The position numbers and the translations under genes were made by a program. A stretch of 14,864 bases of DNA from a virus (lineage: Duplodnaviria; Heunggongvirae; Uroviricota; Caudoviricetes), in IMG/VR virus record IMGVR_UViG_2703718837_000007, one strand, 5' to 3'. The notes beneath the pieces are model-generated. The model had not been told where the DNA came from. It saw nothing but the letters and a program-made list of their open reading frames with translations, and made no database searches. Below are positions 9,904 through 12,027 of this stretch, piece after piece (within the stretch, counting starts at the first letter, position 1; each line of letters opens with the position of its first letter).

Positions 9904-12027
9904 ATGTCAGATATCACCGCAAATGTTGTGGTAAGCATGCCTTCGCAACTCTTCACTATGGCGCGTTCTTTTAAAGCCGTAACTAATGGCAAAATTTATA
10001 TCGGTAAAATTGACACGGACCCGGTAAATCCTGAAAACCAGATTCAGGTTTATGTGGAAAACGAAGACGGCTCTCACGTTCCTGTTTCGCAACCAATCAT
10101 CATTAACGCTGCTGGTTACCCTGTATATAACGGACAGATTGCCAAGTTCGTAACTGTGCAAGGCCATTCTATGGCTGTTTATGATGCATACGGTGCGCAG
10201 CAGTTCTATTTTCCGAATGTGCTAAAGTATGATCCAGATCAGTTTAAGGGCAATCTCCTGAGCGAAGATCACTCACTTGGCGACTCTCTAGTCATGCATA
10301 ACCCACAGTTTGTCGATAGCACATCGACCATTCTCTCAAAAAAGCTAACTATCGACCTGAGGACGCTTACAGACTACGGGTTTGCTGAGGGAAACACCGG
10401 TGCTCAGAACAAAGCTGCATTTCAGAAGGCTATTGATGATGCTACGTTGCCAACTGAGATTGTTATACCAGAGGGGGCGTTCATTGTTGACCCTGGTATT
10501 ACGATTAAGAATACTGTCACCATGATACGAGGTGCTGGCGCATATCAGTCCAGAATTTTCTCTACGGGTACAGCGGCACCGATAATCACGCAACAAGATG
10601 GGGTAATTGCGTTCTGCGAGTTCAGGGACTTTGGTCTTGACGGAAATGGCTACGCAGCTAACGGCATCAGTCTTACTGAAGCCAACCACATTAAAATAGA
10701 AAATATTGACGTGGTTAATACTAATAACAACGCAATATTAGTTAACGGTTACTCCATTGACATCATTGGGTGCCGGTTGTTTCAAAACGCCGGTAACGGT
10801 ATTAATGTTGGTGGTTTCTGCAATAATATTAATATAATCAACAGCCGTATCTATGGTAACGGAGCCGGTGGAGTTTTACTTACGCCAGCTTACGCTGAGG
10901 GCGGTATGAGCGTCAGAGTTAATGGCAACAATATAGAGCAAAATAAGTTCTACGGACTTTTGGCTTACGGGGTTAAAGGCCTTAACCTTGATGATAACTA
11001 TTGGGAACGCAACGGTGAGATTGGTTACCCGTATAGTGTACCTGAGTCTATTACAGTACGTGCGGATATCCACCTTATCGCGAACAATTTTACATTAATT
11101 CCTGACCTTTCAAAAATTAATGATACCGTATCTATTCGCGGGAATCAGCAGACCGCGATTGGCTACGCCAGCGCGCTACCTAACCAAGACGGATTTATTT
11201 TCACGAACTATGCGAAAAACCTGACGATTGAAAATAATCAGTTATTAGACGTATCGAAAGTGAATAATTTATTAGCAATGTACCACAATAATCTTTCGTC
11301 CAAAGTTACTGACAGGCTATATCTTGCCAACAACACAGTGAACTCCATAGGATACGTTGGTAGTTATGACCCGGCGACACAAAACCCTGACACTGCGCAT
11401 TTAATAGATATTGCGAACAGAGAGTTAACTGCTAACTATCTTGATCGAAATATGTTGCTCTGGACCGCGACATCTGGAACCACAGGAACATTGATAAAAA
11501 CTCAAAACATCTATGCTGGTAATTATTCATTCTTAGTTACGACAGGAGATAGAGTTTGGGGACGAACGATAGACCTCAACAAATCACCAGAACTAAAAGG
11601 GAAATTTGTATGGTTTGGTGCGTGGGTAAATGACCAGGGAGCAGCGTCAAAACTTATGTTTATAGTTAATGGTGCAGGACAAACAGACTCTACAGCACCT
11701 TTAGCTGGTAATGGGAAATGGCGCTATGTTAGTTGTGGTGTGTATATAGACGCAACGGCTACAGCTATAAATGTTGGCATAAGAAATTATGGTTCAGGAA
11801 ATGTACTCATAAACTCACCGTCTCTTTGTGTATATGGAATGCCATCAAATGCGTTACAAGTTGAAAAAACAACATTTTATCTTTCGTCAGTACCTACATC
11901 CGGTTTCTGGGATATAGGCGAACGCGTTATCAATAGCGCACCTGCTTCAGGACAACCAAAGGCGTGGACATGTAATATTGCAGGTGGTCCCGGGGTTTAC
12001 AGCTTCCTTTCTGAGGGGAATTATTAA
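9904..12027 (+). CDS. Tailspike protein: P22-type N-terminal head-binding domain plus distinct right-handed beta-helix receptor-binding/depolymerase body, 707 aa
   Basis: [26 protein letters not shown]...[10 protein letters not shown] matches the P22 gp9 N-terminal domain. Downstream, parallel beta-helix repeats ([50 protein letters not shown]) are unlike P22 gp9. The track ORF begins 16 codons upstream (9856), which I reject. Confidence 0.9.

Follow-up and report, generated by a model that had tools for sequence, protein, structure and literature searches.

The tailspike gene in the stretch of Caudoviricetes DNA analysed here (14,864 nt; hereafter, the window) is very likely an already-known O26-type Lederbergvirus prophage tailspike. 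Its 707-aa product is identical at 690 positions to I3U_RS19900 of RM10386, a strain of E. coli O26 (WP_001280420.1, in NZ_CP028126.1), in a gap-free alignment with 98% identity over 100% of the length. The original prediction had regarded the substrate of this protein as unknown; given the near-identity to the characterised RM10386 tailspike, residues 120-707 of which confer O26-specific delivery, this claim and the novelty that it implied do not survive. Public databases already list the exact 707-aa sequence under EFA4100160.1 and further accessions, with the title 'phage tailspike protein [Escherichia coli]', and 102 contigs encode it.

The coding sequence lies within a single long plus-strand ORF (9856-12027), which is open for 16 codons 5' of ATG 9904. 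Homologues start at ATG 9904 (MSDIT...), with GGAG 7 nt upstream, and leave ATG 9856 unused, so that the coordinates 9904-12027 (707 aa) are correct. Minus-strand ORFs within the gene (9907-10167, 10345-10689 and 10876-11073) were taken as chance ORFs. The gene and its parts are as follows.

9904-12027, plus strand: tailspike coding sequence, 707 aa plus stop, the counterpart of RM10386 I3U_RS19900.
9904-10248, plus strand: head-binding (particle-anchor) domain, residues 1-115, matching PF09008 and, in the PDB, P22 gp9 and Sf6 gp14.
10249-10350, plus strand: linker or neck, residues 116-~150, with pLDDT below 50; 25 of the 45 differences from the 873-aa protein P0011 fall in residues 116-155.
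10351-11388, plus strand: right-handed parallel beta-helix, residues ~150-495, the presumed module for O-antigen binding and cleavage.
11461-11838, plus strand: C-terminal beta-sandwich, residues ~520-645, with strands at model residues 406-528 and pLDDT ~72-89.
11604-12027, plus strand: 3' recombinant segment, with ~91.5% DNA identity to RM10386, in which residues 556-707 equal those of the tailspike P0041.
11857-12024, plus strand: conserved C-terminal tail, residues ~652-707 (...SEGNY), with pLDDT below 50.
12031-12056, no strand assigned: GC-rich, terminator-like hairpin with a 10-bp stem and a T-run on the minus strand after the stem.

The hairpin separates the convergent tailspike and gtrC-like genes; flanked by an A-run at one end and a T-run at the opposite end, it could act as a terminator for both.

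The N-terminus of the protein matches the full length of the Pfam family Head_binding (PF09008), residues 1-113 aligning with profile positions 1-113 (E=4.2e-67). Homology of the first ~115 residues to P22 gp9 had been anticipated and is borne out, but 'nearly identical' overstated it: the head-binding domain shares 84 of 114 residues (73.7%) with P22 gp9 and 104 of 115 (90.4%) with Sf6 gp14. When all PDB sequences were searched with phmmer, P22 gp9 chains matched residues 1-115 only, similarity being undetectable beyond that point, and no homology of the body to the endorhamnosidase part of gp9 (residues ~120-666) was found. The match to Sf6 gp14 reached residue 256, but it was strong only to residue 115 and weak within the body. 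At the DNA level, the tailspike gene is matched by 32 phage records, 31 of which end at gene nt 339-351, and many E. coli prophages match the tail genes of the window up to positions 10245-10253 and then stop. So consistent a set of end points places a genuine junction at codon ~115, far outside chance expectation. Because similarity to other P22-like tailspikes ends there, the module swap is real as well, an exchange of the classical tailspike kind, in agreement with the proposal of a P22-type N-terminus joined to a different beta-helix body.

The 3' two-thirds of the gene had also been read as more AT-rich, which is not borne out. GC content is uniform over the junction (0.429 in the head-binding segment vs 0.427 in the body) and declines gently over the body thirds (0.443, 0.425 and 0.414), and the steps in composition lie outside the gene, in the upstream tail genes (0.514) and the downstream gtr genes. 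The surroundings of the tailspike comprise the following features.

3459-3696, plus strand: deletion junction after the ninE stop, then a gp10 remnant (Phage_stabilise profile positions 395-469 of 469).
3696-9432, plus strand: genes for a P22-like needle (Sf6-type knob) and for gp14-like, gp7, gp20 and gp16-like (SLT domain) proteins, identified with Pfam.
9522-9815, minus strand: Mnt/Arc-family repressor gene (PF11423, PF03869), divergent from the tailspike.
12065-14864, minus strand: O-antigen glucosylation cassette of gtrC-like (506 aa), gtrB (GT2) and gtrA genes, GC 0.366.

The tailspike follows the needle, gp14, gp7, gp20 and gp16 genes and the immI repressor gene, the same order as in RM10386 and 2013C-3277. 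The PF09008 anchor, this late-region position and the beta-helix body together mark it as a P22-like (Lederbergvirus-type) tailspike. Among its neighbours, the gp16-like ejection protein (7039-9432) has an N-terminal SLT lytic-transglycosylase domain and varies in length in close relatives, from 665 aa in assembly L002 to 797 aa in the window and 911 aa in assembly L005. The 506-aa gtrC-like protein had no Pfam or NCBIfam match.

The O26 assignment draws on genomes and on published work. A search of 5,426 complete E. coli genomes located the body in 105, where the DNA is 98.3-98.4% identical and the gene is labelled 'phage tailspike protein'; among those 105 every serogroup stated in a name is O26 (O26:H11 str. 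11368; O26 str. RM8426). Pas et al. 2023 (PMC10408124) screened prophages of STEC serogroups for Lederbergvirus and Uetakevirus tailspikes and defined an O26-specific RBP subtype, with RM10386_Prophage_RBP as the Lederbergvirus representative (anchor/RBD boundary at residue 126) and E2865_Prophage_RBP as the Uetakevirus one (boundary at residue 206). A subtype there takes at least 30% aa identity over the receptor-binding domain, with at least 60% coverage also required in the initial step, and the window tailspike, with its full-length identity of 98%, belongs to the O26 subtype. In a 2025 study (PMC12737597), residues 120-707 of RM10386 I3U_RS19900 were fused to the CBA120 TSP3 anchor, and the chimera gave an O26-specific luciferase signal, reporting DNA delivery, without plaques; transfer of this result is limited by 15 differences between the window protein and the tested one within residues 120-707, ten of which lie in the C-terminal 128. 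An R2-O26 tailocin built with a receptor-binding domain from an RM10386 prophage was weakly active, with spots only at 75-300 ug/mL and killing that was not significant (PMC11762384). Experiments thus back the O26 specificity indirectly. We infer that the window allele has retained this specificity.

The architecture of the body was explored with an AlphaFold2 monomer model of residues 116-707, based on an alignment of 19 homologues (mean pLDDT 79.4). The model has a disordered neck, a long high-confidence beta-helix, a beta-sandwich and an unmodelled stretch of the last ~55 residues. The helix at ~150-495 and the sandwich at ~520-645 confirm the parallel beta-helix repeats and the C-terminal beta-rich region that had been read from the sequence. 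Pfam assigns residues 330-486 to the generic Beta_helix family; searches of Pfam and NCBIfam found no enzyme family profile for the body, and no NCBIfam model for the tailspike. The fold neighbours of the body include PfbA (a non-hydrolytic adhesin), AlgE4 (an epimerase) and lyases, and the solved structures of P22 gp9, Sf6 gp14 and HK620 gp9 match its fold at 11-14% identity; no solved structure is close to the body. The C-terminal tail (~652-707) is near-identical in phage N7, despite the diverged core of the N7 protein, and also matches another phage's 'pectate lyase superfamily protein'; this segment of ~55 residues, outside the monomer model, is probably one that interlocks the trimer.

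Four acidic residues of the body, D286, E345, E368 and D388, are invariant in the 19 homologues, down to 36% identity, and three of them, E345, E368 and D388, follow one another at intervals of about one helix rung; the catalytic carboxylates may be among these candidates. Among characterised P22-like tailspikes, those of P22, Sf6 and HK620 are endoglycosidases and that of CUS-3 is an endosialidase; the glycans targeted by the first three differ from that of the window tailspike. Such activities, together with the invariance of acidic residues on successive rungs, argue against a beta-helix that binds O-antigen without cleaving it, a reading that we consider unlikely. It would accord with a body that matches no enzyme family profile, with PfbA and AlgE4 as close folds, and with the poor performance of the engineered constructs (PMC12737597, PMC11762384). 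The studies cited here report no biochemical cleavage assay and no solved structure for the O26-type body. The O26 repeat is reportedly ->3)-a-L-Rha-(1->4)-a-L-FucNAc-(1->3)-b-D-GlcNAc-(1->. Since GlcNAc, FucNAc and Rha make up the O26 polysaccharide (PMC12093740), which has no uronic acid, a beta-elimination lyase is not expected. Endoglycosidase (hydrolase) chemistry is the most likely for the body.

The window allele shares its 707-aa length, domain order and head-binding domain with RM10386 I3U_RS19900, but the first 200 nt and the last 424 nt of the gene come from another allele lineage. The 54 nt differences between the two genes are clustered (10 in gene nt 1-200, 5 in 201-1500 and 36 in 1701-2124), and the identity of 99.6% over nt 201-1500 falls to ~91.5% over nt 1701-2124; in window coordinates, 9904-10103 is 5% diverged from the RM10386 allele and 11604-12027 is 8.5% diverged. 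Of the 17 substitutions in the protein, 10 lie in residues 580-707 and only 5 in residues 116-555. P0041, a tailspike of the head-binding type, is identical to the window protein over residues 556-707 and differs from it at 72 positions in the helix, and its gene is followed by gtrCBA, like that of the window. The clustered differences from RM10386 and the identity to P0041 at 556-707 point to intragenic recombination within the O26 subtype: judged by these comparisons, the window allele is a three-part recombinant, in which an O26:H11-type helix sits within a P0041-like N-terminus and C-terminal domain.

The gene neighbourhood differs between the two prophages as well: that of RM10386 lies at argW, looks complete and has an acyltransferase gene downstream of the tailspike, whereas that of the window has gtrABC, occupies the ybhC/bioA site and is deleted. 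More generally, O26:H11 prophages with a near-identical tailspike have an acyltransferase gene where the window has gtrABC. Many K-12-like genomes, which span several O-types, match the chromosomal flank at 100% identity; the flank is therefore a hint of lineage only, giving no host serogroup, and as a K-12-like flank it implies that the carrier lineage is not O26:H11 STEC. Such observations could mean that the recombinant allele recognises an antigen other than plain O26, for example glucosylated O26 or the O-type of a phylogroup-A host. The 3' divergence of 8.5%, vs 0.4% in mid-gene, the C-terminal residues shared with P0041, whose helix differs, the linkage to gtrABC and the K-12-like flank all agree with this possibility. 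Against it stand the only 5 beta-helix substitutions relative to the tested O26 protein, the location of the binding site on the helix in the solved P22, Sf6 and HK620 tailspikes, as summarised in PMC10408124, and an identity of 98%, far above the 30% over the receptor-binding domain that defines the subtype. We therefore regard a shifted specificity as distinctly improbable and retain the assignment to O26.

Recombination points are also evident from more distant comparisons. In a large protein database, the same body occurs on two chassis, the 707-aa head-binding type and an 873-aa PF18668 type; the 873-aa O26:H11 proteins (for example, P0011) are 92-93% identical to the window body from ~residue 150 to the C-terminus but have another anchor (PF18668, not PF09008) and another neck, the neck at 116-~150 being particular to the P22-type versions and absent from the PF18668-type proteins. 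In a phage collection, the body has one relative, at 59% aa identity, in Escherichia phage N7 (Lederbergvirus; AYR02211.1, MH717096, 4001-6127). The N7 protein has the same architecture as the window tailspike and is identical to it over residues 1-174 save 2, with 1 difference in the last ~40 residues, whereas identity in the core (residues 175-665) drops to only ~55%. This pattern moves the exchange points away from 115, to ~175 and ~665, and, together with the sharing with PF18668-type proteins from ~150, makes the anchor/body boundary only one of several recombination points. Remoter relatives of the body were found in Citrobacter sedlakii (80%) and a Budviciaceae bacterium (56%). The tailspike of assembly L002 (P0001) is 100% identical to that of the window over residues 116-707, and its prophage keeps intact head genes. 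In NZ_CP158147.1 (E. coli FDN-24, from chicken, 4.8 Mb, a size not typical of STEC), three places match the tailspike body.

The tailspike of the window belongs to a cryptic prophage of ~17 kb, which occupies the classical lambda attachment region (ybhC/ybhB-bioA). Positions 1-3200 carry, on the minus strand, early-left ea genes, abc2 and an exonuclease gene (Rv2179c-like) that lacks its 5' end. Two internal deletions adjoin this region, with junctions at ~3247-3282 (early-left/ninE) and ~3459-3478 (ninE/gp10'). Homology to the intact gp10 gene begins at ~3471-3479, and the gp10 remnant, ~10 nt past the ninE stop, comprises only the last ~75 codons. The ninE/gp10' junction is the same to the base in L008 and L009, two independent assemblies of E. 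coli; at least 24 assemblies of this species have it, in each case between ybhC and ybhB-bioA, in the order ybhC - lambda-type int - xis - ea genes - abc2 - exo' - ninE - gp10' - needle...gp16 - mnt - tailspike - gtrCBA - ybhB - bioA. The element is absent from the complete RefSeq E. coli genomes, and an exact-match scan of GTDB representatives for the junction returned none. The genome of E. coli no107 was considered as a case of the same architecture and set aside, since its pieces stand in another order (tail genes, tailspike, gtr, intS, ea genes) and thus do not form the same element.

The ~17-kb element lacks immunity, replication, lysis, terminase, portal, scaffold and coat genes and the late-gene regulator, and with these losses it cannot by itself build a particle for the tailspike. 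It is almost an even question whether the gene is a silent fossil, intact only because the deletion is recent, with no expression and no present function. The loss of the late-gene regulator and of the genes for lysis, terminase, portal, scaffold and coat, along with most of gp10, favours this view. So does a sigma-70 consensus scan of the plus strand upstream of the tailspike, in which no convincing promoter was found and counts were not above those in shuffled sequence. On the other hand, the ORFs of the tailspike and of all the neighbouring ejection proteins are intact, and the protein is identical on its 102 contigs while the ea-gene region varies (L008 vs L009). The question concerns present use only and leaves the identity of the protein as an O26-type tailspike unaffected. 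The joint claim that the specificity of the allele differs from plain O26 (being directed, for example, at a glucose-modified form) and that the allele has been kept intact for a purpose, within a widespread cryptic prophage of K-12-like E. coli, is very improbable; the purpose might be to supply incoming P22-like phages with host-range modules, as a reservoir, or to provide the host with an O-antigen-trimming enzyme that it expresses.

Taken as an O26-type tailspike, the protein would work in the manner of its P22-like homologues. By homology with these, it would form a trimer, modelled here as the monomer alone, that residues 1-115 would dock to the tail, with the beta-sandwich and the conserved C-terminal tail locking the three chains together. 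Binding to the O26 O-antigen of E. coli would fall to the beta-helix (~150-495), which would probably also hydrolyse this polymer, allowing the particle to reach the outer membrane. The gtrABC genes are the usual lysogenic-conversion partner and would glucosylate the host O-antigen. In the window, the tailspike gene is an intact passenger of the cryptic prophage.

The module swap, the O26 assignment and the engineering uses of the receptor-binding domain have already been published, so that the discovery value of the gene is small, the minor additions being the recombinant C-terminal domain, the gtrABC partner and the residence in a defective prophage. As a natural variant of a domain that targets O26, it has some practical value for detecting STEC or designing tailocins. 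For the biology of these phages, the gene illustrates that tailspike exchange points are not confined to the anchor/body boundary and that intact host-range modules persist in defective prophages.
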